From an uncultured Anaerolineales bacterium (GTDB taxonomy: Bacteria; Chloroflexota; Anaerolineae; B4-G1; SLSP01), in NCBI GenBank assembly GCA_964508025.1, contig CAZDSF010000008.1, positions 22,088-83,465 on the forward strand: DNA of 61,378 nt, written 5' to 3'. The notes under the pieces are model-generated. The model was not told the origin of the DNA and made no database searches. It saw only the letters and a program-made list of their open reading frames with translations. Position numbers and translations under genes: made by a program. This document shows, in pieces, positions 29,981 to 60,918 of the stretch. How positions within the stretch are numbered: the stretch's first letter is position 1; every line of letters starts with the position of its first letter.

Positions 29981-30100
29981 GGGCGTCGGGGATTAGCGCA
30001 GCGTGATGGTTGACCGGTAATTAGCAACAAGGCATGACGGCGCGGAGACGGTTTATCCTTCCACCTTCATCCTTTATCTTTCTTTCTCAGGAGGTTTTCC

Positions 30101-30616
30101 ATGTCTTTCTCGAAGTTGATTCTTTCGCGTTACAGCGTGCGGGCCTATCTGTCTGATCCTGTCGAAGAAGATAAGCTGCGGCAGGTGTTGGAAGCGGGTC
30201 GGTTGGCGCCGACAGCGGCGAACAAGCAGCCCATCCATATCGTGGTGCTCCGCACGGCGGGCCGCGAGGCGGAGCTCAAGCGCATCTATAGCGCGGAGTG
30301 GTTCAGCCGCGCGCCGCTCGTGCTTGCCGTTTGCGGCGTGGAAGAGGCGGGTTGGAAGCGCACCCGCCACGATGGCAAATCCTATCTCCAGGTGGATGCG
30401 GCGATTGTGATGGATCATGTCATTCTCGCGGCGACGGAGCTGGGGCTGGGGACGTGCTGGATTGCGGCCTTTGACCCGCAGGCGGCGCGGGAGGTGCTGG
30501 CGTTGCCGGAGGGCGTCGAGCCGATCCTCTTCACGCCGCTGGGCTATCCCGCAAGCACGCCCGGTCCCAAGAGCCGCAAGCCGCTTGCGGAGCTCGTCCA
30601 TTACGACCGCTGGTGA
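30101..30616 (+). CDS. Nitroreductase family protein
   Basis: LSRYSVRAYLSDPVEEDKLRQVLEAGRLAPTAANKQP, classical nitroreductase N-terminus. Confidence 0.85.
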   Translation: MSFSKLILSRYSVRAYLSDPVEEDKLRQVLEAGRLAPTAANKQPIHIVVLRTAGREAELKRIYSAEWFSRAPLVLAVCGVEEAGWKRTRHDGKSYLQVDAAIVMDHVILAATELGLGTCWIAAFDPQAAREVLALPEGVEPILFTPLGYPASTPGPKSRKPLAELVHYDRW

Positions 30617-31926
30617 AAGAATCGCTCGTTCGGGTTTTCTACGAAGGCGCTCCCGTGTATGAGTGGGAGCGTATGGAGCGTCATCGCACCGAGTTTGCGG
30701 TGACGTTGCGGGCGCTGGCGGAGCATCTGCCGCCGGCGCCCGCGCGCATACTCGATTGCGGCGGCGGCCCCGGCCGCTATGCGCTGGCGCTGGCTCAGCG
30801 GGGGTATGACGTCACCCTCTTCGATCTCACGCCGGCGTTGTTGGCCCTGGCGCGGGAGAAGGCGGCTGAAGCGGGCGTGGCCCTCGCTGGCTACGAGGTG
30901 GGCACGGCGCTGGATCTCTCGCGTTTCGCGGATGCCAGCTTCGACGCGGTGCTGCTCATGGGGCCGCTCTATCACTTGCTGGAGGAGAGCGAGCGCCGCG
31001 CGGCGTTGGCTGAGGCGGTCCGGGTGCTGAAGCCAGGCGGGGTGCTCTTTGCGGCGTTCATCTCGCGTTATGCAGGGCATCGGGATTGCGCCGTTCGCTA
31101 TCCTGAGCGGTTGCTGGAAGATGGCGCAGTTTACGCTCAGATTCTTGAAAGCGGCATTGTGCTGCCTCAGGTTGAGGGTGGATGGACAGCGTATTTCGCG
31201 CATCCAGATGAGATGTTGCCGCTTTGTCATGGAGCGGGCCTGGAGGTAGCGGCGCTGCTGGCGGTGGAAGGCGTGGTCAGTGGACATGAGGCGGCGGTCA
31301 ACGCGCTGACCGGCGCAGCATGGGAGCAGTGGGTAGAGGTCAGCTACCGGCTGGCGCACGAGCCGGCGCTGAGGGGCGCTGCAGATCATCTCCTGGCGGT
31401 GGCGCGCAAACCGCGTTGGCGGGCGGTGTTGCGCGCGCTGGCGGCGCGGCTGGATGCAGCGGGCATTCCGTACCGCGTGGTGGGTGGGACGGCGGCGGCG
31501 TTTCATGGTGTGCCGGTGCGCGTCAAGGACATTGATTTGGAAACTACGGCGGCGGGCGCGCAGCAAATCGCGGCGCTGTTTGCGGTGCACGTGATACGGC
31601 CCGTGGCGTTCTCCGAAAGCCCTGTGTACCGCTCGCATTTCGGGCAGCTGGACATCGAGGGCGTGCTTGTGGAGATTATGGGCGATTTGGAGCGGCGTGA
31701 GGGCGACGGTTGGGCGCCTTCAGCGGCGCTGACGGAGACCGTGGTCATGCTGGAAGGCGCGCCGGTGCGGGTTTCGTGGCTGGAGGAGGAGACGTTGGCT
31801 TACATGCGGCGAGGGCGATTGGAGCGCGCGGCGCTGTGTCTGCCGCATTGCGATCACGGGCGGCTCATGGCGCTGTTGCGCGGCGATGTGGCGATGGGGG
31901 TTCTGGGCACTCAGGCGTCTCAATAA
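30613..31926 (+). CDS. Class I SAM-dependent methyltransferase fused to a minimal pol-beta-type nucleotidyltransferase domain
   Basis: ARILDCGGGPGRYALALAQRGYDVTLFDL is SAM-binding motif I. The C-terminal GGTAAAFHGVPVRVKDIDLE fits G[GS]-x(9-13)-DxD. Confidence 0.7.
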   Translation: MKESLVRVFYEGAPVYEWERMERHRTEFAVTLRALAEHLPPAPARILDCGGGPGRYALALAQRGYDVTLFDLTPALLALAREKAAEAGVALAGYEVGTALDLSRFADASFDAVLLMGPLYHLLEESERRAALAEAVRVLKPGGVLFAAFISRYAGHRDCAVRYPERLLEDGAVYAQILESGIVLPQVEGGWTAYFAHPDEMLPLCHGAGLEVAALLAVEGVVSGHEAAVNALTGAAWEQWVEVSYRLAHEPALRGAADHLLAVARKPRWRAVLRALAARLDAAGIPYRVVGGTAAAFHGVPVRVKDIDLETTAAGAQQIAALFAVHVIRPVAFSESPVYRSHFGQLDIEGVLVEIMGDLERREGDGWAPSAALTETVVMLEGAPVRVSWLEEETLAYMRRGRLERAALCLPHCDHGRLMALLRGDVAMGVLGTQASQ

Positions 31927-32290
31927 GCTGTAGCGCGGCACTCAATACACTGGCTACATCCATTGGCGATGAGGGGAAAATAGAATCGGCCCAGTTGTGA
32001 AGGTGATTCGGGAAGGTGGCAACGGTTGGGTGATGGGGTGCATTATCCCAGCGACTGATTAAATCGCCCTTTGGGCTTTGAAGATGGTAACGGTATTTAG
32101 GGCGCAAAAGCGTGGGTTCTGTTTCGACGTATTTGGCAATGTGCAACTCGTAATTGCCAATGAGCGTGATTACCCCGCGAATGTAGCATTCACTAGAGTC
32201 AATTTCCTCAAAGTGGAGGTTGGAACTGATGACATGTGGAGCGTTGTGAATTGACTCGAGTAATTGGAGATAGTAAGCGCGGCTGTTCAC
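31865..32290 (-). CDS. Toxin-like protein of a TA-like pair (resembles the DUF6516/TumE-type family; assignment tentative)
   Basis: 141 aa with GTG start overlapping the upstream stop (GTGA). ...ISRWDNAPHHPTVATFPNHLH.... Lies in a low-GC insert. Its last ~20 codons read into the convergent high-GC neighbour. Confidence 0.45.
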   Translation of the reverse strand: MNSRAYYLQLLESIHNAPHVISSNLHFEEIDSSECYIRGVITLIGNYELHIAKYVETEPTLLRPKYRYHLQSPKGDLISRWDNAPHHPTVATFPNHLHNWADSIFPSSPMDVASVLSAALQLIETPECPEPPSPHRRATAP

Positions 32291-32586
32291 ACTTCAACCC
32301 CGGTGAGAATGGTGAATCGCCGTTCCCATAACGTGGCTCCGCGACTTGCCGCGTACCAATCGAAAAAATCGGGAGCATCACCCAATTCACCGGACTCGAA
32401 GCGTGTCATGAACTCATCCGAGGTTAGATTATATTGCTTCTCAAATGTTTGACACAATTGTTGAAAATACTTGCGCCGTGTGTCAGCAATCGCTCGCTCG
32501 CGGCGCAGGGCCTCTCGCAGTGTGTCCTGTATCTCGCGCAGGTTGATGGCCTTGTCGAGGCGTGATTCCAAGGCAATAGTTACCAT
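32287..32586 (-). CDS. Antitoxin-like small protein, upstream partner of the 31865-32290 gene
   Basis: 99 aa, 4-nt overlap with the partner. Low-GC composition. Confidence 0.4.
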   Translation of the reverse strand: MVTIALESRLDKAINLREIQDTLREALRRERAIADTRRKYFQQLCQTFEKQYNLTSDEFMTRFESGELGDAPDFFDWYAASRGATLWERRFTILTGVEV

Positions 32587-32685
32587 TGTTTGCCCCCTTG
32601 TAAAGCACTATTTTCATTCTATCATTGACGGGGTCAGAAGTCAATTTGCGCTCGCGCCGGCGAACTTTTCTCAAGGAGGATCTCC

Positions 32686-33348
32686 TTGGATCCCTGGGAC
32701 TCTCTCAACGCTGAAATCACATCGTGTCGCGCGTGTCCGCGTCTGGCAGCGTGGCGCGAGGAAGTGGCGCGCACCAAGCGCCGCGCGTACCGCGATTGGG
32801 AGTACTGGGGGCGTCCTGTCCCTGGCTTTGGCGACCGGAACGCGCGCATCGTGATTGTCGGGCTGGCGCCGGGGGCGCACGGCTCGAATCGCACCGGGCG
32901 CATGTTCACGGGCGACAGCTCCGGCGAGACGCTCTTCGGCGCGCTGTATCGCGCCGGGTTCGCCAATCAACCCACGTGGGAGCGCGCCGATGATGGCCTG
33001 ATCCTGGGGGATGTCTTCATCACGGCGGTGGGACGCTGCGCGCCGCCCGCTAACAAACCCAGCCGCGAGGAGCTGCGCACCTGCCGTCCCTTTCTGGCGC
33101 GCGAGCTGGCGCTGCTGCCGGTGGAGCGGGTGTTGGCGCTGGGGAAAATCGCTTTCGATGGGCTGCTGGCTCTGTGGCGCGACCAGGGACACGCGATCCC
33201 GACACTCGCGTTTGCCCACGGCGCGCGCTACGATTTGGGCGACGGGTTGCCGCAGCTGTACGCTTCTTACCATCCCAGCCGCCAGAATACCCAAACGGGG
33301 CGGCTCACCCTGGCGATGTTCGACGCGGTTTTCGCCGCTTTGCGGTGA
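32686..33348 (+). CDS. Uracil-DNA glycosylase, family 4/5 (UdgB-like, Fe-S type)
   Basis: CRACPRL...GLAPGAHGSNRTGRMFTGDSSG. TTG start 5 nt after aaggagga. Confidence 0.8.
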   Translation: MDPWDSLNAEITSCRACPRLAAWREEVARTKRRAYRDWEYWGRPVPGFGDRNARIVIVGLAPGAHGSNRTGRMFTGDSSGETLFGALYRAGFANQPTWERADDGLILGDVFITAVGRCAPPANKPSREELRTCRPFLARELALLPVERVLALGKIAFDGLLALWRDQGHAIPTLAFAHGARYDLGDGLPQLYASYHPSRQNTQTGRLTLAMFDAVFAALR

Positions 33349-33407: not shown

Positions 33408-35639
<2,232 letters not shown>

Positions 35640-35702
35640 TTACGTTTGTGTACTGTCCGGCTAATTTGCGCCTATTTGCGGTACTGAATCGTGCTCTCTG
35701 TC

Positions 35703-36167
35703 TCAGGTATCCAGTGGGGTGTTGTGCTCGCTTTCTCGGTTCTGGCAGGTGGGGCAGAGTCCGTAGAAGGTGATCTGATGGCGCGCTACCTGATAACCAG
35801 CCGCCTTCTCAGCAGGCAAGGCGACGTCTGCAAAGTCGTGGTGGATGTCGGTCAGGGTGTGGCAGCGCACACAGAACAGGTGGTGATGCGGGCCGAGGTT
35901 GGCATCGTAACGCATACAGCCTTCACCGCTTTCATACGTCTCGATCAGCCCGCCCAATTGCACCAATTCATGCAGCGTGTTGTACACCGTCGCGCGTGAC
36001 ATATCGGGTATCGTTATCGCCGCACGCTGGTAGATTTCTTCCGCTGTGGGGTGGGACATGCCCTGCGCCAGGACGTCCACAATCGCCCGGCGCTGGGGCG
36101 TGATTTTCCGCCTACTCTGGCGGAATAATTCGATGAGCATTTCAGCCGATGGCATTGCCTGTCTCAT
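35703..36167 (-). CDS. perR: Fur-family peroxide-responsive regulator (PerR-like)
   Basis: ITPQRRAIVDVLAQ...HHHLFCVRCHTLTDIHHDF...CPTC. Same strand and immediately upstream of katG. A perfect PerR box lies in its promoter. Confidence 0.85.
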   Translation of the reverse strand: MRQAMPSAEMLIELFRQSRRKITPQRRAIVDVLAQGMSHPTAEEIYQRAAITIPDMSRATVYNTLHELVQLGGLIETYESGEGCMRYDANLGPHHHLFCVRCHTLTDIHHDFADVALPAEKAAGYQVARHQITFYGLCPTCQNRESEHNTPLDT

Positions 36168-36184
36168 TTAGATTGATTCCTAAT

Positions 36185-36199
36185 TTATAATTATTATAA
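36185..36199. promoter_or_regulatory. Perfect PerR box TTATAATTATTATAA (7-1-7 palindrome), 18 bp upstream of the perR start
   Basis: Read directly from 36185-36199. Matches the Bacillus-type PerR operator consensus TTATAATNATTATAA. Confidence 0.7.
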
Positions 36200-36252
36200 A
36201 ATAAGAGCATCGGTTTGTCAAGGGGCTTTCTTGCTTTTTGACTTTCCGGTTA

Positions 36253-36281
36253 TTGACTTTCATTCCAGTATCTACTACAAT
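36253..36281 (+). promoter_or_regulatory. Sigma70-like promoter TTGACT-N17-TACAAT for the S8 peptidase gene
   Basis: ttgactttcattccagtatctactacaat. Confidence 0.5.
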
Positions 36282-36369
36282 GGAATTAAGCCAGTGCCTC
36301 TCTGTCGGTCTTCTTTACTCTTAACTTGCCCGCTTTCGTGTGTCCTCTTTTCAGCTGGTGGATGAAAGG

Positions 36370-39300
36370 ATGGCGATGATGAAGACGCGATGGCTTTCTT
36401 GTCTGTTCCTCCTTGTGTTATTGGCGGCGGCAGGGACGCCTGTTCTGCCCCTGACCGCCGGACCACTCCCCAACACCAAAATTGCTTCCAACCTTGGATT
36501 GTTGCTCACGTTGCTCGTGCGCCCGGAGTCCCTGGCGGAGGATTCGGCTCTGGCGCGAGAGTTGGAGAGCATCCGCAGCACCGGCGCGGTGGCGGTCACG
36601 GCCCGCTTCGAGCGCGAACTCGCGCCTGCCGAGCGCGCTGCATTCGAGGCGTTGGGTGTGATTTTCGAGGAGGTGGGGGGCGAATTGGCGCATCTCGGCC
36701 CCATCTACGGGGTGCGAATTCCGCCGGCGGCGGTTCCAGCGCTGACGGCGCATCCTTTGGTGGTCTGGCTGGAGGCGGTGTGGCAGCCCGTGGCCCTTTC
36801 GCCGTTGGATCTGAGTGTGAGGAACGCGCCGGGGTTCGGCACGTATGTGGACGCGCCCGCCGTTTGGGGGGGGCCTGCGCCGGGCGCGCCCCTCACGGGG
36901 CAGGGGGTGGTGATCGCCGACTTCGATACCGGCGTGGATGTGCTGCATCCGGCGTTTCTGCGCGGGACGTATGGCCCAGGATACTCGAATTGGGACACGA
37001 ATTTCGATGGCGTCTTTACGCCGGGGGTAGATACGTTGGGCGGTGCGATTCTGCGCTTTTGGGATGCCTTTGGCGATCCTTTGGGGACGCCCGGCGTTCT
37101 CGATCTGACGCAGGACTGGATCTATGGCGATACCAACGGCAACAGCAGCTATGACTGGACTGAGCCAATCTACATGCCCTACGATGCCAACAGCAGCGGC
37201 GTGCTGGAAGCCGGCGAGTTCCTGATCCTGCGCGGCAATCTGGGGCCGGGCATTCCTACGAGCAAAATCGCCGCTACGCTGGACGCGCTGGGGACGACGT
37301 ATCAACGGGGCGTCAATCTGGAGCAGACGCCTCCCGATGTGAGCGGGCATGGCACCAGCGTCTCCGGCATTCTGGGCGCGGGCGCAGTCTATTGGGGATC
37401 GCAATACGTCTGGAACCATGCCCAGCGTTACACCGGTCTGGCGCCCGACGCCGATCTGTTGATGGCGGACGCTTTTGGGCTGAATCTCGATCCCGCGCTC
37501 TACATTCCGTGGGCGCAGCAGCACGGCGCGCAGATTATGCTCTACGAATACGGTTCGTGGATCCAGCAGTATCTGGACGGCTCCTCCAATCATGAGCAAA
37601 TGATGGACCTGGCCTCGCAGCAGGGAATTCTCCAGGTGACACCTACAGGCAACCTTCACTGTGGGGGTACAGCGGGCTGCAATCCTCGCCATCTGCAATA
37701 CAGCATTCCCGCAGGGGCGGCGCCCTTCAACCACGTGTTCAACGTGCCGCCGCTTTCGCCGCACTACAGCGACGTGTGGATCACGATGCTCTGGCTGCAT
37801 CCGGCAAACAATCTCACGGTGCAGCTCACCACGCCCACCGGCGGGATGGGGAATACGGTTGCCTTGCCGTGTGTGTTGCCCGGTACAGGCTGGCAGTATA
37901 TGAATACCGCTGATGGGCATCTCATCGGCTGTGAGCGCGCGGTGGATTCCGGTCGCGGTACGGCGATGTACAACATTTGGATCGGCAGGCCGGGACTGGG
38001 CGTGCTCCCCGGCAACTGGATCATGGGCGTGACGAATCTTGCGTCTGTAGCGGAGGCGACGAATTTCTACATTGCGGATAGCGGCAACCAGTGGGCTTTT
38101 GGCGCGGGCTGGCTCAATGCGGGCGGCGGCGCCGAATTGCATACAGCGACCTGGCCCAGCACGTGCGATTCGTGCGTGGGTGTGGCGTCGTATGCGACGC
38201 GCGCCAACTTCATTGGCGCGCCCGGCGCGCTGAGCTGGTTCAGCGGGCGGGGAACGCGCTTTCTCGATGGCGCGTTGATCGTGGATGTGGCAGCGCCCGG
38301 TCACTACGACATCATCACGCCGGAGAGTCGCGCGGTTACGGGGAGCACTGGCTCGTACAATCCCACCTTCGGCGGCACCAGCGCGGCAGGCCCGCATGTA
38401 GCGGGCGTGGCGGCGCTGCTCTATCAATACGCCCAGGGGCAGACATCGCCGTTCTTCATCACCGAGGCGTTGCGCCGTGGGGCGGTGCAGGATGGCGCGA
38501 CCGGCGGTGTGCCCAACGCGAATTGGGGCTACGGCAAGCTGAGCGCGCCCGGCGCGCTGCGCAACATGCTGCACGACCTCGGTGATGCGCCTGCCAGCGA
38601 CAATCATCATGGGGTGGTGATGACGGCTTATCCGGGCGTCCAGGCCCACTTTCCCACAGTTTTCGGCGCGCCGGTACCCGGCCCCTTGCACTGGGCTTCC
38701 AGTGCGCTGATGTTCGGTCCCTGGGATTCGCAACTGGGCGGCCTGGCTTCAGCGGAGGGGGAGGCGGATCGGTGGTATGATGAGGACGGCTTTAACAACC
38801 TGCAACCGCTGCTCGATCTGGCCGATCTGGATCAGCCCGACGACGGCCTGGTATTCCCCGGCCCGGTAGCGCCATGCATGCCGCTGCTGCTCACCATCCA
38901 CGGCGTCATCCCTGGGTTCACGCCGGGGCCGTGGACGCGCTTCGTGAACGTGTGGATTGATGGGAACGCCGATGGGGATTGGGCTGATGTCCACACGTGT
39001 GTAATGCCTAACGATGCGCCAGAGTGGGCGTTGCAGAATGTTTTGGCGCCAGGCCCGTTCCCAGGCGCTTTTGTTCTGGCAATGCCAGTGATGGTGTATC
39101 AGCAGACAGCGGGCGACCCCTTTTGGATTCGCGTTTCGATTGCGGAACAGCTGGCGCCGCTCGACCCCGTTACCGGGCGCGCCGATGGGCGCGGACCGGT
39201 GCTCGGTTATGCGTTTGGCGAAACGGAGGATTATCTCTATCCGCAGACGAATTTCCAGGCTGCGCCCACGACGCAATGCGGCAGCGGCGCGGTAGCCTTT

Positions 39301-53757: not shown

Positions 53758-53867
53758 TGCCTTTTCAGAGGACACGAGATTGCAGGTGGGACTGGAGAAT
53801 ACGTTAGCGTTCTCCGGTGTCCTTGTGCATTTCGAAAGACAGTAAGGTGTAGTTTTAGGAGATTGTG

Positions 53868-55334
53868 ATGCGGTTTCTATGGCGTGGTTACAAATCGGCT
53901 GCTGTGGCTCTGTTCCTCGTGGGATTATGTGTGGCGTTATCGGCGCCGGCGACACCGACAGTAGGGCTGAATGGCATTCCAATTGAGTCTGAATGGCTGC
54001 CGACGGAGATTGAATCTGGGCCGGTTCTGGGGCACAAGTTGTTTCTGCCTTTCATTTTCAAAAATCACGCTCCTACTCCTCCGGAAACGTTGTTTGGAGT
54101 TCAGATGTACGGTTCGTGGGTTACGAATGACAACTCTCTCGGTCTGGCTCGTGTAGCGCGGGTATCATGGATACGCTGGCCGATCTCCTGGTCGCAAATC
54201 GAACCGGTTAATGTCAGCCCGAGTCAGTACAGCTGGGCAGCAACGGATGCGGCGATTGCCAAAGTTATTGCTTCAGGACACCGGCCGATTATAACGATTG
54301 CGAGCAACCCATCCTGGGCAGCGACTTATGCACAAGGGCCAATAGATAGGGTTAGTCTTTTGGAGTTTGCTGAATTTGTTGAAGAACTCGTGGAACGCTA
54401 TGACGGTGATGGCTACTGTGACGCTCCTGGATCACCAGTAGTTCGCTACTGGGAGTTTTACAATGAGCCAGATGCGTACAATCGTTGGGCAGCGGAGCAA
54501 GGATATGGGGCATATTGGGGAATGCATGGTGACCAATATGCAGAAATGTTATGCGCGGTTTATCCGATGATTAAACATGTAAGCCCTGATGCTAAGGTTG
54601 TTCTTGGCGGTATTGCTTATGACTCGTTTCTGGATGAGGGAGGGTCATTTTATCGTAGATTTATAGATGATGTGCTGGATCATGGCGGTGGGAATTGTTT
54701 TGATTATATGAATTTCCACTATTACCCGTCATTTGAGTCGCGTTGGAATGAATACGGTAATGGATTAGTTGGCAAGACTAACTATATGCGTAACAAATTG
54801 GCCCAATACAATCTATCCAAACCCATGATGGTTACAGAGGCTGGTTGGCATAGTAATTTCTACAACAGTCAATTTCCTGGATCCCCAGAAATCCAGAGCC
54901 GTTATGTAGTTAAGCTCTTTGCTCAGGGTGCTGCAGCGCAATTAAACTCTCTCATTTGGTGGTCCTGGATTGATCCCGGTTTGCCTTATGGAGAGAATGG
55001 CTTGCTAAATCAACAATTCGAACCCAAGCCTTCTTTCACTGCTTACCAATTTGCAGCAGAGAAAATCGGGTTAGCACAATTTGATCGCATTGAGCCAACA
55101 GCTTCTGGAGTGGAAGGTTACCGTTTCACAGCTATAAATGGTCGAAAGATTTATGTTTTTTGGTCTGGTGATGGGCAACCGCGCGCTGTAACAGTATCTG
55201 CTACGCAGGCACAATTGAAGAATATGTATGGGCAGCTCGTCCGTATTGTTCGGGATGGAGATGATGGCGTTCTCGATGGCCGGATTCGGGTGGCGGTGGA
55301 TGCGAATCCGGTGTATGTGGAGGTAGATTGGTGA
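53868..55334 (+). CDS. Secreted clan GH-A glycoside-hydrolase-like protein
   Basis: Signal peptide. FYNEPD (acid/base), MMVTEAGW (nucleophile). Post-signal KLFLPFIFKNHAP motif. Moderate-GC composition. Confidence 0.55.
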   Translation: MRFLWRGYKSAAVALFLVGLCVALSAPATPTVGLNGIPIESEWLPTEIESGPVLGHKLFLPFIFKNHAPTPPETLFGVQMYGSWVTNDNSLGLARVARVSWIRWPISWSQIEPVNVSPSQYSWAATDAAIAKVIASGHRPIITIASNPSWAATYAQGPIDRVSLLEFAEFVEELVERYDGDGYCDAPGSPVVRYWEFYNEPDAYNRWAAEQGYGAYWGMHGDQYAEMLCAVYPMIKHVSPDAKVVLGGIAYDSFLDEGGSFYRRFIDDVLDHGGGNCFDYMNFHYYPSFESRWNEYGNGLVGKTNYMRNKLAQYNLSKPMMVTEAGWHSNFYNSQFPGSPEIQSRYVVKLFAQGAAAQLNSLIWWSWIDPGLPYGENGLLNQQFEPKPSFTAYQFAAEKIGLAQFDRIEPTASGVEGYRFTAINGRKIYVFWSGDGQPRAVTVSATQAQLKNMYGQLVRIVRDGDDGVLDGRIRVAVDANPVYVEVDW

Positions 55335-56794
55335 AACGACTATCTGCCGGTATGTGGCGCGTTGCCCTTGCCGGGGTGATGTTGTGGCTGCTCATATCGG
55401 GCATAGCGACGGAGCGTGCATCCGTGGCGGGGAACGCCGGAGATATATTCACCGCGACGACACAAGCCGCGCCCTTGTGTCGCTTTGGCGTGGGCGGCCC
55501 TGGGAACACGCTCAGCTATCCGATTCAGCCGCTGCAACTTGGCTGGTATGTGGATTGGCGGGTGAATAGCAATGCTTCGCCGCCGGCTGGTATGGACTAT
55601 CTACCCATGGTGCGCCTGTCGCAGACCGGCCCCGATTCTTACAGCTACGCGCCGGATCAGAGCGTGCTGGCGACGCTGGCAACCAATCGTCCCGGTATGA
55701 CGTGGTTGATTGGCAATGAGCCGGATCGCCGCCGGTGGCAGGATGATCTTGAGCCGCATGTGTATGCGAAAGCTTATCATGATTTGTATCATATTCTCAA
55801 GGCGGCAGATCCGACAGCGCAGATTGCCGCTGGTGGTATCGTGCAGCCCACCCCCGTGCGCTTGCTTTATCTGGACATGATTCTGGATAACTACCGCCAA
55901 CGCTATGGCGCGCCCATGCCCATAGATGTCTGGAATATTCACGCCTTTATTCTCCGGGAGCGCAGTTGTCAATACTACCCGGAGGATTGTTGGGGGGCCG
56001 AAATTCCTCCCGGCATTGATTGGCCGCAGGGTGAGCTATACGACATTCAAGACAATGACAATCTGGACATCTTCAAGCAGTTTGTGCAGAATTTCCGCGC
56101 CTGGATGGCCTCGCGGGGCTACCAGGATCGGCCTTTGATTATCACCGAGTTTGGCGTGCAGATGCCGGCAATGTATGGCTTCACCGCGCAGCGCGTGAAT
56201 GCCTATATGAACGCCACCTTCGACTATTTGCGTACTGCAACCGGCTCTACAGGCTATCCCGCAGATGGTTATCGTCTGGTTCAGCGGTGGGCCTGGTACA
56301 GTCTGACGGATAACACTTTCAATGGCTGGTTGTTCGACTCGCCGACGCAGCGCACGGTGTTTGGCGACAACTGGGCCGCCTATGTGGCGCAGATTGACCC
56401 TCAAGTGAACCTGGCGCCGGTTAAGCTATGGACCTCGCCCTCGGCGCCTTTCTCGCCCACGGATCCTGTCACGCTCACGTTGGGAGCAACTGTCGTGAAT
56501 AACGGCGACGTGGCATTCACCGGACCTGTAGTGGTGCGTTTCTACGCAGGTACGCCTTCTAGTGGTCAGCAAATTGGCGCGGATCAACTGGTGATGGCGT
56601 TACCTGGGTGCGCAGCAACGACTACGGTCAGCGTGACGATGCCCAACGTGCCTCCCGGCAGGCATCCGGTCTATGTGGTGGTGGATCCTGAGGGGCAGAT
56701 TTCTGAGAGCGATAAGACGGATAATGTGTTGGTCGGGCATGTGCTGGTCGCCACACAACGCTTGTTTTTACCTTTGGTGTCAAGATCGTGGTGA
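55328..56794 (+). CDS. Secreted clan GH-A glycoside-hydrolase-like protein (paralog of 45468) with C-terminal CARDB domain
   Basis: LIGNEPD / LIITEFG. CARDB-like ...VVNNGDVAFTGPVVVRFYAG...VVVDPEGQISESDKTDN. Ends ...RLFLPLVSRSW. Confidence 0.6.
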   Translation: MVKRLSAGMWRVALAGVMLWLLISGIATERASVAGNAGDIFTATTQAAPLCRFGVGGPGNTLSYPIQPLQLGWYVDWRVNSNASPPAGMDYLPMVRLSQTGPDSYSYAPDQSVLATLATNRPGMTWLIGNEPDRRRWQDDLEPHVYAKAYHDLYHILKAADPTAQIAAGGIVQPTPVRLLYLDMILDNYRQRYGAPMPIDVWNIHAFILRERSCQYYPEDCWGAEIPPGIDWPQGELYDIQDNDNLDIFKQFVQNFRAWMASRGYQDRPLIITEFGVQMPAMYGFTAQRVNAYMNATFDYLRTATGSTGYPADGYRLVQRWAWYSLTDNTFNGWLFDSPTQRTVFGDNWAAYVAQIDPQVNLAPVKLWTSPSAPFSPTDPVTLTLGATVVNNGDVAFTGPVVVRFYAGTPSSGQQIGADQLVMALPGCAATTTVSVTMPNVPPGRHPVYVVVDPEGQISESDKTDNVLVGHVLVATQRLFLPLVSRSW

Positions 56795-56806
56795 TCTAAT
56801 CTTTCG

Positions 56807-58417
56807 ATGTCTAACTCTGGCGGGTTTTGTTGTCGAGTGTACTCATTTCGGCACAACAAAGATTTTCTTCGGTTTTATGTATGGGATTTAGCAGCTCTTG
56901 TTTTGATTTTGGCTGCCTTCCTGATGTATACATGGCACACTCAACTTGTTGTAGAAGGATGGGATTCTCTTGCGTATTTATATGCGGCAGAAAGAATAGC
57001 TTCTGGCGAGATTCCTGCTTTATGTAATCGTTATAATGAAACAATTGGCCCGTACTTTACTCTGGCAGGTTTTAACGTAGCGACAAAATTCCCTGGATGT
57101 TTGTTATTGAATTATCCTCCTGGCTTTCCTCTTCTCTTGGCTGCTTTCAAACATGCCTTACCTTTGAATAATGTTGTGTTTTTTGTTCCGGCATTGTTTG
57201 GTGCATTGGGTGTGGCGTTGGTATATTTTATGGGGAGGTTATTGTTTGATGCAAGAATAGGCCTAACATCGGCATTTTTACTTATGTTAGCACCAACTTA
57301 TGTGGAATTTTCTACTGCTTTGTGGTCTGATGTTCCAGTAGCTGTGCTCCTCTTGGCTGGGGGAGTGATATTGATTTGGGGCTATCAGTCGTTGAGTCGT
57401 GTTCGTGCTGGAATTGTGGGATTTGTTGCAAGTATCTTTATCGGCTGGGCTATTCTGTCTCGATATACAGCTGTTGTATATGTTATCCCTTTAGCGTTCT
57501 TTTTCGTTTCCAAGCATTCTCCTAAACAGCTCCTTCGTTTTCTGTCTCTCAGGGTTTTCGTTATTGGTCTTTTTCTAGTGATGATCGGGATATTACTATT
57601 CAATAATGCAGCTTATGGCGGTTATTTGATTACTCCTTACAGTAGTGTTCACGGATGGTATACATTCCCCAAGTTTAGTTGGCGCTATATAGTAGAGTCG
57701 CCGGTTGGGGGTAGTAGTTTAATTGCTGTCATGAGGACTTTATGGAATAACTACCATGTTTTACTTCTGATGGCGATTTTGGGTTTGTTTTGTATGCAGG
57801 GCTCAAGCGGAATACTCGCTGTAAGTGGTCTTGTTGTGCATTTGGGACTTTATATACTTTACGCATTTCCTGCCGAAGGTATTAATTCGAGATTTATTGT
57901 TCCCGCGCTTCCTTTTCTATCTATTGCAATAGGTTGTGGCATTTGGCACTCCTTCGTTTTGCCGCGACGCTGGCTTTGGATGTGGCGAGTGGTATGTTTA
58001 ACCGCATTCCTGTTTTGTCTCCTTTTTCCATTCCCAGCCGTGTTGCACAGATTAGATGGTCGCAATATGGCGGTTGACTCTTATGTGAAATGGATATCTA
58101 ATCTTGCTGCGCAAACCGAACCAGATGCAGTTATTCTGGCGTATTATACTAACGATCCAATATTCTATCATGGAGAACGTCTCACGCTTTTTTACCGACG
58201 GATACCGGGAAAAGACCCTGAAGGTATTGCTACTCCTGCACAAATGTTCGAAAGACGCTTGGTTTTTGCGGTGGATGCTTTGCTGTTAGAAGGTCGTCCG
58301 GTGTATTACGTGATAGATGCTGATCCTCCATTTATGGACAGTTTTACGATTCTTCAAGAGCACTTTAATTTGTCTCTTGTAAACTCAACTTATTCTCTGT
58401 ACAAAATTGATTACTAG
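56807..58417 (+). CDS. GT-C fold membrane glycosyltransferase (ArnT/PMT-like, GT39/GT83-type)
   Basis: Low-GC gene. NYPPGFPLLLAAFKHALPLNNVVFFVPALFGALGVALVYFMGRLLF is the typical GT-C N-terminal loop/TM pattern. 12+ TM helices. Confidence 0.6.
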   Translation: MSNSGGFCCRVYSFRHNKDFLRFYVWDLAALVLILAAFLMYTWHTQLVVEGWDSLAYLYAAERIASGEIPALCNRYNETIGPYFTLAGFNVATKFPGCLLLNYPPGFPLLLAAFKHALPLNNVVFFVPALFGALGVALVYFMGRLLFDARIGLTSAFLLMLAPTYVEFSTALWSDVPVAVLLLAGGVILIWGYQSLSRVRAGIVGFVASIFIGWAILSRYTAVVYVIPLAFFFVSKHSPKQLLRFLSLRVFVIGLFLVMIGILLFNNAAYGGYLITPYSSVHGWYTFPKFSWRYIVESPVGGSSLIAVMRTLWNNYHVLLLMAILGLFCMQGSSGILAVSGLVVHLGLYILYAFPAEGINSRFIVPALPFLSIAIGCGIWHSFVLPRRWLWMWRVVCLTAFLFCLLFPFPAVLHRLDGRNMAVDSYVKWISNLAAQTEPDAVILAYYTNDPIFYHGERLTLFYRRIPGKDPEGIATPAQMFERRLVFAVDALLLEGRPVYYVIDADPPFMDSFTILQEHFNLSLVNSTYSLYKIDY

Positions 58418-58444
58418 ATCTTGTCGGAGAACTTTTAACTTCTG

Positions 58445-59710
58445 GTGACTGGAATGGTTATCTTGATATTAGCTTTGGCATGGATTCTAATTTGTTCGTG
58501 TATGTTCTTCCTTGTGCTAAAAACACCTTTGGATCATTTTGCCAAACTTCGTATTTCTTCGATTCTTGGAATTGCATTAATGTTGCGTTTTGTTCCTGCA
58601 ATTCTTCTCCAGCAAGGTGCAAGCTATGAGATGAATTTGTTTCAAGAAATAGCTGCACAAGCACTTGCGGGTGAGAATGTATTAACGCAATTGCCTTATT
58701 TGCCATTCTTTGTTTATTGGATGGCCATTGCCGAATGGCTTAGCCGGACAACCGGAGTCCATTTTACATTTTGGTTAAAGCTTCCTTCTATTCTTGCAGA
58801 TGTTATGATCATCGCTGTTTTGTATTGGCGCATGGTTAAGTCAGGCGATTCCTATGCAAGGATCAATAAATCTTTGTGGTTGTACGTGTTTAATCCTGTT
58901 ACTATATTGGTTGTGAGCTATCATGGACAATTTGATGTGTTAGCATTGTTATTTTTGATTTTATCCATTGTTGTTTTGGAACTGTATGATTCGAAGAGAT
59001 ATAGTTTCCTGGCGGGTCTTATCCTCGGTGTAGGGATTCTGATTAAGACCTGGCCTGGGATTTTTATTTTGACAGTGATTGCAAGCAGGAACCTTAAAGA
59101 GAAGCTTGGGTTTGTGTTAGCTGCCGCTATTGTCCCCTTCGTTAGTATGTGTGCAAGCATTCTGGTTTTTGGTGGTGAACTGGAGCTGCTTTTTCGAATA
59201 CCTCGTCGCGCTCTACAAGCGGGGGCGATACCTGGTTGGTGGGGTTATACGGGGTTAGCAAATGGTGTGTCATGGCTATTAGGGCAATCAGAAATAAACT
59301 TTGACGGGTTAATGCGCTTTAAATTGCTGATTGTGTTTTTGCCGGTTATGTTAATGGTTTTTTTCTCGCGTAGGAAACCGATATCTATAGCGCTTTTAAA
59401 TGCACTCTTTGCGCTCTTCATTTTTGCTCCTGGGTTTGGTTTGCAATCTTTGAGTTGGCTTATTCCATTTTTTATATGTTTTGCTCGCCGAAATTCTCTG
59501 GGCTGGTATGTAGGTCTGAGTTTCCTGCATATGCTGGTTAGCTATTGGGGAGTTCATTTCACGCCTGCATTATATACAGTGTTTTCATGGGATATAATAC
59601 GGGGGATAGTGCAATTATCGGCTGTGCCTGTGTGGTTGCTGCTAATAGTCCTTGTGCTTAAACGCGAGATGGAAAATGGTGTTTTGGAAGCGAAGAGATG
59701 CAGTCTGTGA
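58445..59710 (+). CDS. Polytopic membrane protein, probable GT-C glycosyltransferase (GT87/DUF2029-like)
   Basis: Low-GC gene, ~11 TM helices. LIKTWPGIFIL-type segment. Confidence 0.45.
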   Translation: MTGMVILILALAWILICSCMFFLVLKTPLDHFAKLRISSILGIALMLRFVPAILLQQGASYEMNLFQEIAAQALAGENVLTQLPYLPFFVYWMAIAEWLSRTTGVHFTFWLKLPSILADVMIIAVLYWRMVKSGDSYARINKSLWLYVFNPVTILVVSYHGQFDVLALLFLILSIVVLELYDSKRYSFLAGLILGVGILIKTWPGIFILTVIASRNLKEKLGFVLAAAIVPFVSMCASILVFGGELELLFRIPRRALQAGAIPGWWGYTGLANGVSWLLGQSEINFDGLMRFKLLIVFLPVMLMVFFSRRKPISIALLNALFALFIFAPGFGLQSLSWLIPFFICFARRNSLGWYVGLSFLHMLVSYWGVHFTPALYTVFSWDIIRGIVQLSAVPVWLLLIVLVLKREMENGVLEAKRCSL

Positions 59711-60918
59711 TACAGTTTGACCAAGTATTCAAGCGTTTTCATCTGGAACGCGCGCGCGCACGTTCGTTCCAGGAATTGTTGCATACCGTCATCAAAGGCT
59801 CGCGACCGCAATCACAGGAAGATTTCTGGGCGCTGCGCAATGTGAGCTTTGGAATTGCGCCCGGCGAGACGGTTGGCTTTATTGGGGCGAATGGCGCAGG
59901 CAAAAGCAGTATCCTCAAACTCATCGCGCGAATTCTGGAGCCGACTTCGGGGCGGGTGCAGGTGAATGGACGAGTTTCGGCGCTGCTGGAGCTCGGCGCG
60001 GGGTTCCACCCCGATTTGACCGGGCGGGAGAATGTGTTCCTGAATGGTGCAATCCTGGGCTTGGAGCGCGCGGATATTCGGCGGCGATTGGACGACATCA
60101 TCGCGTTCGCGGAACTGGAGCGCTTCATTGATGTGCCGGTGCGCAACTACTCCTCTGGCATGTTGGTGCGCCTTGGCTTTTCCGTGGCGACGGCTTTCCG
60201 GCCCGATATTTTGCTCATTGATGAGGTACTGGCTGTTGGTGATCAGGCGTTCCAAGGGCGGTGTCTGCAACGGATCGCGCAAATTCAGCGCGAAGGCGCG
60301 ACTATTGTGTTAGTTTCCCACGATTTGCATACAACGCGCCAGTTATGTCAGCGTGCATTGTGGTTGGATGATGGTGAGATCAAGGCTGATGGTGATACTG
60401 ATGGCGTGATTACAACATACATGCAGCATCTCTGGCAGAAAGATAGCGCACGAAAGTCCTCGGATGATACATTGGGTAGTCGCTGGGGATCTGGAGAAGC
60501 GTTGATCGAGCGTGTGGAATTTCTCGATGCGCAGGGACGTGTTACGGAAGTTTTTCATACGGGCGAGCGCTTCACCGCTAGAATTTGGTATAATGCGCGT
60601 GAACAGGTGGCTATTCCGACATTTGGTGTGGCAATATATCGTGAGGATAATACCCATATTACCGGGCCTAATACCGCGTTGTCTAAATTCCCGATTGATC
60701 AGATTATTGGACGCGGTTATGTAGATTATATAGTGGAGCAGCTACCGCTTTTGCCGGGACGTTATGAGTTTACTGCAGCAATCTATGATTATTATTCGGT
60801 GCATCCGTATGATCATCGCCATCGGCAGTTTGTGTTTGAAGTGCGGGCCGTTGGTGATATCAATCAAAAAGAAGGGGTTATTTATTTGCCATGTCATTGG
60901 GATCATGTGGCGCTATGA
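59698..60918 (+). CDS. wzt: ABC transporter ATP-binding protein, Wzt/TagH type with C-terminal carbohydrate-binding domain
   Basis: GANGAGKSS (Walker A), LSGGM-like NYSSGMLVRLGF, ILLIDEVLAVGD (Walker B). About 150-aa C-terminal beta-sandwich extension. Confidence 0.85.
   Translation: MQSVIQFDQVFKRFHLERARARSFQELLHTVIKGSRPQSQEDFWALRNVSFGIAPGETVGFIGANGAGKSSILKLIARILEPTSGRVQVNGRVSALLELGAGFHPDLTGRENVFLNGAILGLERADIRRRLDDIIAFAELERFIDVPVRNYSSGMLVRLGFSVATAFRPDILLIDEVLAVGDQAFQGRCLQRIAQIQREGATIVLVSHDLHTTRQLCQRALWLDDGEIKADGDTDGVITTYMQHLWQKDSARKSSDDTLGSRWGSGEALIERVEFLDAQGRVTEVFHTGERFTARIWYNAREQVAIPTFGVAIYREDNTHITGPNTALSKFPIDQIIGRGYVDYIVEQLPLLPGRYEFTAAIYDYYSVHPYDHRHRQFVFEVRAVGDINQKEGVIYLPCHWDHVAL

Follow-up and report, generated by a model that had tools for sequence, protein, structure and literature searches.

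Organization of the tumAE locus

The DNA analysed here (the window) is a 61,378-nt stretch of contig CAZDSF010000008.1 from an uncultured Anaerolineales bacterium. Between a gene encoding a methyltransferase-nucleotidyltransferase fusion and a gene of the uracil-DNA glycosylase (UDG) superfamily, it carries a 0.74-kb segment of low GC content with two minus-strand genes, called tumA and tumE below (Table 1). All the evidence considered, this region is very probably a bicistronic type II toxin-antitoxin (TA) cassette, tumA-tumE, which belongs to a divergent subfamily of the TumE-TumA systems and occupies a hotspot between the two flanking genes. The two genes overlap by 4 nt (GTGA), the GTG start codon of tumE sharing bases with the tumA stop codon, and at its other end tumE overlaps the convergent methyltransferase-nucleotidyltransferase gene by 62 nt (31865-31926).

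In 200-nt windows, the GC content is 0.475-0.51 across positions 31900-32600 against 0.61-0.73 on either side. The conserved core of tumE has a GC content of 0.49 and a GC content at third codon positions (GC3) of 0.545, and tumA has 0.52 and 0.56, respectively; these GC3 values are approximately 0.2 lower than those of five neighbouring genes (0.72-0.80). The anomaly is local and sharp but not unique in the window: over the whole 61 kb the cassette stretch has a z-score of -1.74 and 7% of the 700-nt windows are equally low, so that the dip is less exceptional at this scale because of six other low-GC islands. In alignments of occupied and empty sites, host homology stops on the left at the methyltransferase stop codon and restarts on the right some 20 nt before the UDG start codon. 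The genes adjoining the cassette are housekeeping genes, not defence genes. We found no paralogues in the window, nor any Rfam family or tRNA in a scan of it.

An earlier note, made from the letters of this DNA and its open reading frames (ORFs), had described a stretch of ~0.7 kb with about 50% GC, two minus-strand genes of 99 and 141 codons overlapping at GTGA, and the continuation of the distal one 62 nt into its convergent neighbour. The ORFs and the composition bear out this description, with the inserted DNA at ~31927-32663 and a cassette GC3 of 0.55 against 0.72-0.80 in the neighbours. Its guess at a DUF6516/TumE-type protein was also right (PF20126, 62.9 bits, cut-off 23.4); the motif that it quoted, RWDNAPHHPTVATFPNHLH, is found in the 141-aa protein, and both proteins match TA families in searches with hidden Markov models.

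Table 1. Features of the tumAE locus, and content of the same methyltransferase-UDG spacer in four relatives
Feature	Position	Strand	Description
Methyltransferase-nucleotidyltransferase gene	30613..31926	+	SAM-methyltransferase (MTase) domain fused to an Aminoglyc_resit-type nucleotidyltransferase domain; convergent to tumE
tumE	31865..32290	-	GTG start; predicted toxin of 141 aa; family-homologous core, residues 1-124 (31919-32290)
Locus-specific C-terminal tail of TumE	31865..31918	-	TPECPEPPSPHRRATAP plus stop; antisense to the last methyltransferase codons
Accessory DNA, approximate extent	31927..32663	.	Estimated by comparison with the relative L174, where the site is empty (53-nt spacer)
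tumE codon 53	32132..32134	-	AAA (Lys) in the window, Glu in the family
tumA	32287..32586	-	ATG start; 99 aa; predicted antitoxin of a divergent TumA subfamily
Shine-Dalgarno-like AAGGGGG	32593..32599	-	6 nt upstream of the tumA ATG, read from sequence
Putative sigma-70-type promoter	32616..32644	-	-35 TTGACT (32644-32639), 17-nt spacer, TG-extended -10 TAGAAT (32621-32616)
UDG-superfamily gene	32686..33348	+	Family-4-like uracil-DNA glycosylase
Spacer in L174			Empty, 53 nt
Spacer in L171			tumA (99 aa) and tumE (125 aa) in the equivalent position
Spacer in L172	L172:4554-5895		AAA_14/DUF4143 ATPase gene instead
Spacer in L183			tumE, tumA, two ORFs including a DDE-transposase fragment, ATPase gene, then UDG; ATPase cassette and adjacent transposase fragment seen at L183:226-2243

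Family membership and predicted structure of the two proteins

TumE-TumA systems were established and experimentally validated in 2023 as type II TA systems that inhibit translation (Durairaj et al., Nature 2023, PMC10584680). Six gammaproteobacterial TumE toxins stopped the growth of Escherichia coli and were neutralised by their cognate TumA partners; only for the Allochromatium tepidum TumE was translation shown to be inhibited, through a lowered incorporation of 35S-methionine, and an RNase activity was put forward without being demonstrated (PMC10584680). The 141-aa protein of the window matches the Pfam family PF20126 (TumE, formerly DUF6516) with 62.9 bits (gathering cut-off 23.4, E = 2.7e-17) along residues 41-121, covering profile positions 1-78 of 81. 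It also matches the NCBIfam TumE model NF045777 (E = 2.8e-11) with 43.4 bits, which is under the equivalog cut-off of 90, and the PADLOC component PDC-M44B (E = 2.5e-12). By these profile scores, it is a homologue of the validated TumE group that belongs to a different equivalog. As a comparator for both proteins we used a pair encoded on a Nostoc plasmid and annotated by PGAP as antitoxin TumA and toxin TumE; the identity to this Nostoc TumE is 30% over 120 residues (E = 3e-14). In the protein database, 50 TumE homologues share 44-99% identity with the window protein, most of them 122-130 aa long and with a conserved start (MN[AS]R.YY), while a deep profile search retrieved approximately 1,759 representative clusters for the whole family and only 19 for the close subfamily at E <= 1e-30.

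The AlphaFold2 (AF2) model of TumE, based on the alignment of 50 sequences, has a mean predicted local distance difference test score (pLDDT) of 91.3. It consists of a helix (residues 3-16), strands at 20-31, 34-43, 48-56, 62-71, 77-82, 96-98, and 104-106, and a second helix (112-124), and as predicted it matches the family fold, in which two helices pack against an antiparallel sheet of seven strands (PMC10584680). Conservation was measured on 128 diverse representatives of the TumE family with a median identity of 30% to the window protein. Only 11 positions are conserved in at least 80% of them: Y6, L49, E53, Y66, R80, D82, N83, H86, P94, H96, and H98. Among these, R80, D82, N83, H86, H96, and H98, which are 93-99% conserved in the 128 representatives, are all retained in the window. 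A reading of the H-x-H motif as HIT-like histidines was dropped, the fold giving it no support. No relative of TumE or TumA was found among solved structures, as was the case in the original description (PMC10584680).

The 99-aa partner has no match to any Pfam family, and pairwise BLAST gave none to the Nostoc TumA. Profiles do reveal a likeness: the protein matches the NCBIfam TumA model NF045776 (E = 5.4e-6) with 26.5 bits, far under its cut-off of 100, and the PADLOC component PDC-M44A (E = 1e-6), and the alignment by hhalign of a profile of 49 TumA homologues with the Nostoc TumA yielded 80% probability and E = 1.4e-5 over 39 columns. The shared core in this alignment is FE..Y..sSDEF..rFE.GeLGDD..yFDWYAA. 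At this profile level, the 99-aa protein is probably a remote TumA homologue of a divergent subfamily, with ~44 additional N-terminal residues relative to the 76-aa TumA model. The database contains 94 of its homologues, mostly of 97-99 aa. The AF2 monomer model (pLDDT 96) is all-helical, with three helices at residues 16-52, 56-65, and 72-95. An N-terminus of the ribbon-helix-helix type was considered for TumA and rejected, as the model shows one long helix (residues 16-52), not a strand-helix-helix arrangement.

Proposed expression of the cassette and selection on its genes

A partner gene of 97-99 codons lies directly upstream of tumE, in the same orientation, in all five loci inspected (the window, L171, L178, L179, and L180), and overlaps it by 1-4 nt; at least seven further toxin/partner homologue pairs have equally long longest contigs. 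A consensus scan upstream of tumA detected a strong putative sigma-70-type promoter with 10 of 12 consensus matches plus an upstream TG, in a region with four promoter-like sites against 0.6 expected from shuffled sequences. Its core, ATTGAC...ATGrTAGAATGAA, is conserved in the orthologous L171 cassette and in L183, which suggests that the cassette is transcribed from a promoter of its own. An inverted repeat over the -35 box (TTGAC-N10-GTCAA) was considered as a candidate operator and rejected, since it is not conserved in L171, L178, L179, or L180.

These elements allow a mechanism to be proposed. The promoter at 32644-32616 would direct the synthesis of a single mRNA, from which tumA would be translated first and tumE by translational coupling through the GTGA overlap. 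The all-helical TumA would then bind and neutralise TumE, and upon depletion of TumA the free TumE would block protein synthesis, as reported for the A. tepidum toxin, probably acting via the conserved polar set E53, R80, D82, N83, H86, H96, and H98. The cassette would have entered, or belonged to, a composite island before the split between the window and L171, and would have been kept since then under purifying selection.

Comparison of the window with L171 gave proportions of nonsynonymous (pN) and synonymous (pS) differences of 0.106 and 0.737 for tumA and of 0.19 and 0.81 for tumE. With pN far under pS, both genes are under purifying selection. In the same comparison, the pS of the cassette (0.74-0.81, saturated) is clearly above that of the flanking genes (0.45-0.55), which could reflect either a weaker codon bias that speeds silent drift or an exchange of alleles between lineages.

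Gene callers systematically miss this tumE. It is not called in any of ten near-identical public contigs (L001-L010) and the exact 141-aa TumE is not on record as a gene product, probably because of its GTG start combined with the 62-nt overlap with a longer convergent gene. The missing call in those ten contigs might be taken to mean that both ORFs are chance, non-coding reading frames in an AT-richer spacer. We find this hardly credible, given the Pfam match well above threshold, the 50 and 94 homologues that agree in length and start, the values of pN far under pS, and AF2 models with pLDDT of 91 and 96, and given that the start codon and the overlap most simply explain the missed call.

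Integrity of the toxin

In contrast with most of its family, the window TumE has a lysine at position 53. A glutamate is found at this position in 49 of the 50 close homologues and in 119 of the 128 diverse representatives (93%). Among the nearest relatives, E53 is carried by nine strain-level contigs and by P0001, K53 occurring only in the window and in contig L010, which shows no difference from the window over 1,101 nt and possibly derives from the same sample. Since this substitution reverses the charge of a signature residue, TumE is probably attenuated or inactive in this strain, next to an intact antitoxin. The eleven strain-level sequences all encode the same TumA (100% identity), whereas TumE varies. 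The tumE orthologue of L183 (L183:2693-2856) has lost one nucleotide, which puts it out of frame after approximately codon 36, with tumA intact; this 1-nt deletion is possibly a second toxin-disabling lesion beside an intact antitoxin gene.

The C-terminal end of TumE is also particular. The part homologous to the rest of the family ends at I123/E124, right over the methyltransferase stop codon (31924-31926). The window tumE is devoid of a stop codon of its own at this point and reads 17 more codons antisense to the methyltransferase tail, so that 17 residues follow the E124 column, the longest tail in the alignment, against 0-9 in homologues. Residues 125-141 are disordered in the AF2 model (pLDDT ~50), and near-identical strains differ in this tail (C128R, A138V, and P141T). 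The L171 tumE has its stop at codon 126; the methyltransferase gene there ends earlier, and a 14-nt spacer separates the two genes. The methyltransferase tail (G-T-Q-A-S-Q-stop) is host sequence, as it is homologous to that of L172, which does not carry tumAE. The overlap between the two genes reflects the loss of the tumE stop codon right at the junction, and the tail looks like a tolerated accident, not a functional element. No terminator-like site was found between the convergent methyltransferase gene and tumE, and the host-gene and cassette transcripts are therefore expected to overlap. A direct repeat of 26 nt (77% identical, copies 55 nt apart at 31859-31884 and 31914-31939) spans the methyltransferase C-terminal codons and the left insert junction; it may be due to chance or be a recombination footprint.

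Decay starting with the toxin is a common fate of chromosomal TA modules. The module could be decaying in this strain, with a toxin already dead through E53K and the tail, the features maintained being the antitoxin, for anti-addiction or regulation, and/or the promoter region that the insert brings next to the UDG gene. We consider this a serious possibility, although we stop short of favouring it. It would agree with the replacement of a residue that is glutamate in 93% of the diverse family members, with the frameshifted tumE next to an intact tumA in a second lineage (L183), and with a TumA that is invariant in the eleven strain-level sequences while TumE varies. The insert also separates UDG from the upstream co-directional genes and contains a weak plus-strand promoter-like site (32598-32625, 9 of 12 matches). 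Conversely, the tumE ORF is intact and all its other signature residues are kept, E53 is retained in nine of the eleven strain-level sequences, purifying selection on tumE is strong between the window and L171, the disordered tail may be harmless, and the effect of E53K on TumE is deduced from conservation.

A more far-reaching possibility, which we advance tentatively, is that TumE is an enzyme with a fold unlike those of solved structures and an active site that includes E53. E53K would then be a natural null allele coexisting with the wild type in this population and, together with the frameshifted toxin of a sister lineage, would represent toxin-first decay in which the antitoxin is retained (anti-addiction). 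If true, the null allele would mark a catalytic residue of the TumE toxin family.

An accessory-gene hotspot with an old cassette

We searched for relatives via methyltransferase orthologues in a large protein database and then examined their contigs; direct scans of genome and metagenome contigs with the methyltransferase gene retrieved only homologues of <=36% identity, of no use for presence/absence. The samples of L171, L172, L174, and L183 are ERR14788459, ERZ15185073, SRR29900440, and SRR13394437, and those of the strain-level contigs are ERZ162996xx and ERR4539294. The arrangement of the window recurs in ten metagenomic contigs with 98.6-100% identity to it. Beyond them, the spacer between the methyltransferase and UDG genes varies in content (Table 1), with at least four occupancy states among relatives, and is thus a small hotspot for accessory genes. 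The transposase fragment of L183, a DDE_Tnp_1 match under the Pfam cut-off, is the only trace of mobility at the site. In L171, a remnant of ~60 nt of the 5' end of the ATPase cassette (L171:4060-4125), made up of the palindrome GTTTTCATTGACAGTGAAAAC and the first ATPase codons, persists between the tumA promoter and UDG, and the ancestor of L171 therefore had a composite tumAE-plus-ATPase state. In L172, the same palindrome overlaps a TTGACA-17-TATAAT promoter, and by its position looks like an operator. L172 also contains, upstream of the real UDG start (L172:5896-6130), ~2.5 tandem copies of a unit of ~85 nt comprising the UDG ribosome-binding region and the first ~50 nt of UDG, which are the mark of recombination having occurred repeatedly at the hotspot.

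Four flanking genes, compared by identity, place the window with L171, and L172 with L174. The cassette and its junctions are common to the window and the diverged lineage L171 (flanking-gene pS 0.45-0.55, synonymous divergence dS ~0.7-1.0), the lineage sharing the module having 78% methyltransferase identity to the window; its acquisition is for this reason old, not recent. The module has a GC content of 0.47-0.53 against 0.59-0.66 in the flanks in all five independent loci, including two lineages that carry it between ileS and alaX. Since low GC is a stable property of the module subfamily, it cannot serve as a clock for the insertion. Neither a target-site duplication nor terminal inverted repeats were found at the boundaries in the window.

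The earlier note had also proposed a horizontally acquired module and regarded the overlap of tumE with its neighbour as a sign of an insertion boundary. Acquisition is supported by the presence or absence of the genes at exactly this site in close relatives, by their non-native GC content wherever they occur, and by the hotspot itself, but a recent arrival is not, as L171 shares the cassette. Likewise, the overlap does lie at the junction; its cause, however, is the lost tumE stop codon, and in the sister lineage L171 the genes are cleanly apart.

A different history would make the cassette, or a larger island that also contained the ATPase gene, ancestral to the group, with the empty site of L174 and the ATPase-only site of L172 resulting from deletions and the low GC content maintained by selection. 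This we judge rather doubtful. The polarity of gain and loss is not settled by outgroups, L183 and the L171 remnant do show a composite state later cut down by deletion, and the same low GC in five loci, including the two ileS/alaX lineages, means that the composition does not ameliorate. Yet the module sits in unrelated genomic contexts in different lineages, the L183 hotspot contains a transposase fragment, GC3 is 0.2 under that of host genes, cyanobacterial plasmids carry members of the family as well, and the DNA must at some point derive from a different compositional pool.

The spacer is not the only place in this gene block where TA genes are found. L171 has a Phd/YefM-ParE pair (L171:901-1430, GC 0.50-0.55) between genes for an F420H2-dependent quinone reductase and a nitroreductase, where the window only has a 120-nt spacer (29981-30100), which makes two sites of TA insertion in this block.

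Distribution, possible role, and comparison with known systems

The tumAE subfamily is seen mostly in Chloroflexota-like metagenomic contigs, and the TumE family is also present on nine cyanobacterial plasmids and in one archaeal provirus. The subfamily has no PHROG hits and no relatives on IMG/VR viral contigs. Compared with the validated TumE-TumA pairs (PMC10584680), the cassette shares the Pfam match, the fold, the bicistronic layout with an overlapping upstream partner, and probably, at the profile level, the TumA core motif. It differs from them by the ~30% identity of its TumE to an equivalog-annotated member, the 99-aa antitoxin, the Chloroflexota-like hosts (the tested members being gammaproteobacterial), and the E53K substitution plus a 17-residue read-through tail. 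It also resembles other chromosomal type II TA cassettes in hotspots, such as the L171 Phd/ParE pair, in being small, two-gene, and low in GC, with its own putative promoter and no mobility gene of its own, located between housekeeping genes and variably present among close relatives. Unlike Phd/ParE-type cassettes, it encodes a toxin with a fold and family unrelated to ParE/RelE, and the 3' end of its toxin gene is fused into a convergent host gene.

Many type II TA systems act in defence. The role of the cassette might accordingly be anti-phage abortive infection, not addiction or stress response, if infection depleted or sequestered TumA and the released TumE halted translation. The two proteins match the two components of the PADLOC candidate system PDC-M44, one each, and their adjacent genes follow the order expected for the system (component A, E = 1e-6; component B, E = 2.5e-12; these are component matches that do not include PADLOC system-level thresholds), and the hotspot also takes the AAA_14/DUF4143 ATPase gene and, nearby in L171, the Phd/ParE pair. 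Nevertheless, we consider a defensive role unlikely: PDC-M44 is a candidate only, for which our literature search retrieved no publication mentioning it, the window copy lies outside any defence-gene neighbourhood, among housekeeping genes, the association with viruses amounts to the single archaeal provirus match, and the toxin allele of the window is probably impaired.

Several observations weigh against the identification of the region as a tumA-tumE cassette inserted in a hotspot, or limit its reach. The validated pairs number six and are all gammaproteobacterial, both proteins of the window score under the NCBIfam equivalog cut-offs (43.4 against 90 bits and 26.5 against 100 bits), and the likeness of the 99-aa protein to canonical TumA is visible only with profiles. 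As neither protein resembles a solved structure, the biochemical mechanism is not inferable from the fold, and autoregulation is unsupported because no conserved operator was found upstream of tumA. Concerning the state of the toxin, the K53 allele is known only from the window plus one Logan contig, perhaps of the same sample, and the L183 frameshift comes from a single short-read Logan contig and could be an assembly error. As for the history of the site, L175-L177, whose methyltransferase orthologues have ~64% identity, have lost the MTase-UDG synteny, and gain versus loss is not polarisable with such outgroups.

With these reservations, the tumAE cassette of the window is an ordinary accessory module, of note mainly because its toxin is mutated at a residue conserved across the family. 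A TA family described in 2023 and tested only in Gammaproteobacteria gains from it a divergent branch that is associated with Chloroflexota and has a longer antitoxin, and its site documents a small hotspot with four occupancy states among close relatives. The conserved residues E53, R80, D82, N83, H86, H96, and H98, together with the natural E53K variant, are direct targets for mutagenesis aimed at the action of TumE. None of these findings overturns current understanding.

Other features of the window

The methyltransferase-nucleotidyltransferase fusion that borders the cassette is widespread, with 1,665 database proteins at E <= 1e-30, many of them under the labels Chloroflexi, Anaerolineae, or Caldilineae. 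The start codon of the fusion gene shares bases with the stop codon of the nitroreductase gene upstream, and its own stop codon overlaps no other start codon. Downstream of UDG, katG (33408-35603, minus strand) adjoins a gene for a Fur-family regulator (35703-36167, minus strand), and the GC content goes down to 0.385 around 36100-36400, just upstream of the latter; the two genes (33408-36167) probably form a peroxide-stress unit controlled by PerR/Fur. Finally, the products of a large low-GC block (53865-60918, genes with GC 0.41-0.52) are a GH5-like hydrolase, two glycosyltransferases (one PMT_2/STT3-like of the GT-C type, the other GT87), and a Wzt-type ABC ATPase that has a Wzt_C domain; the block resembles a cluster for the synthesis and export of glycans, with a foreign composition.

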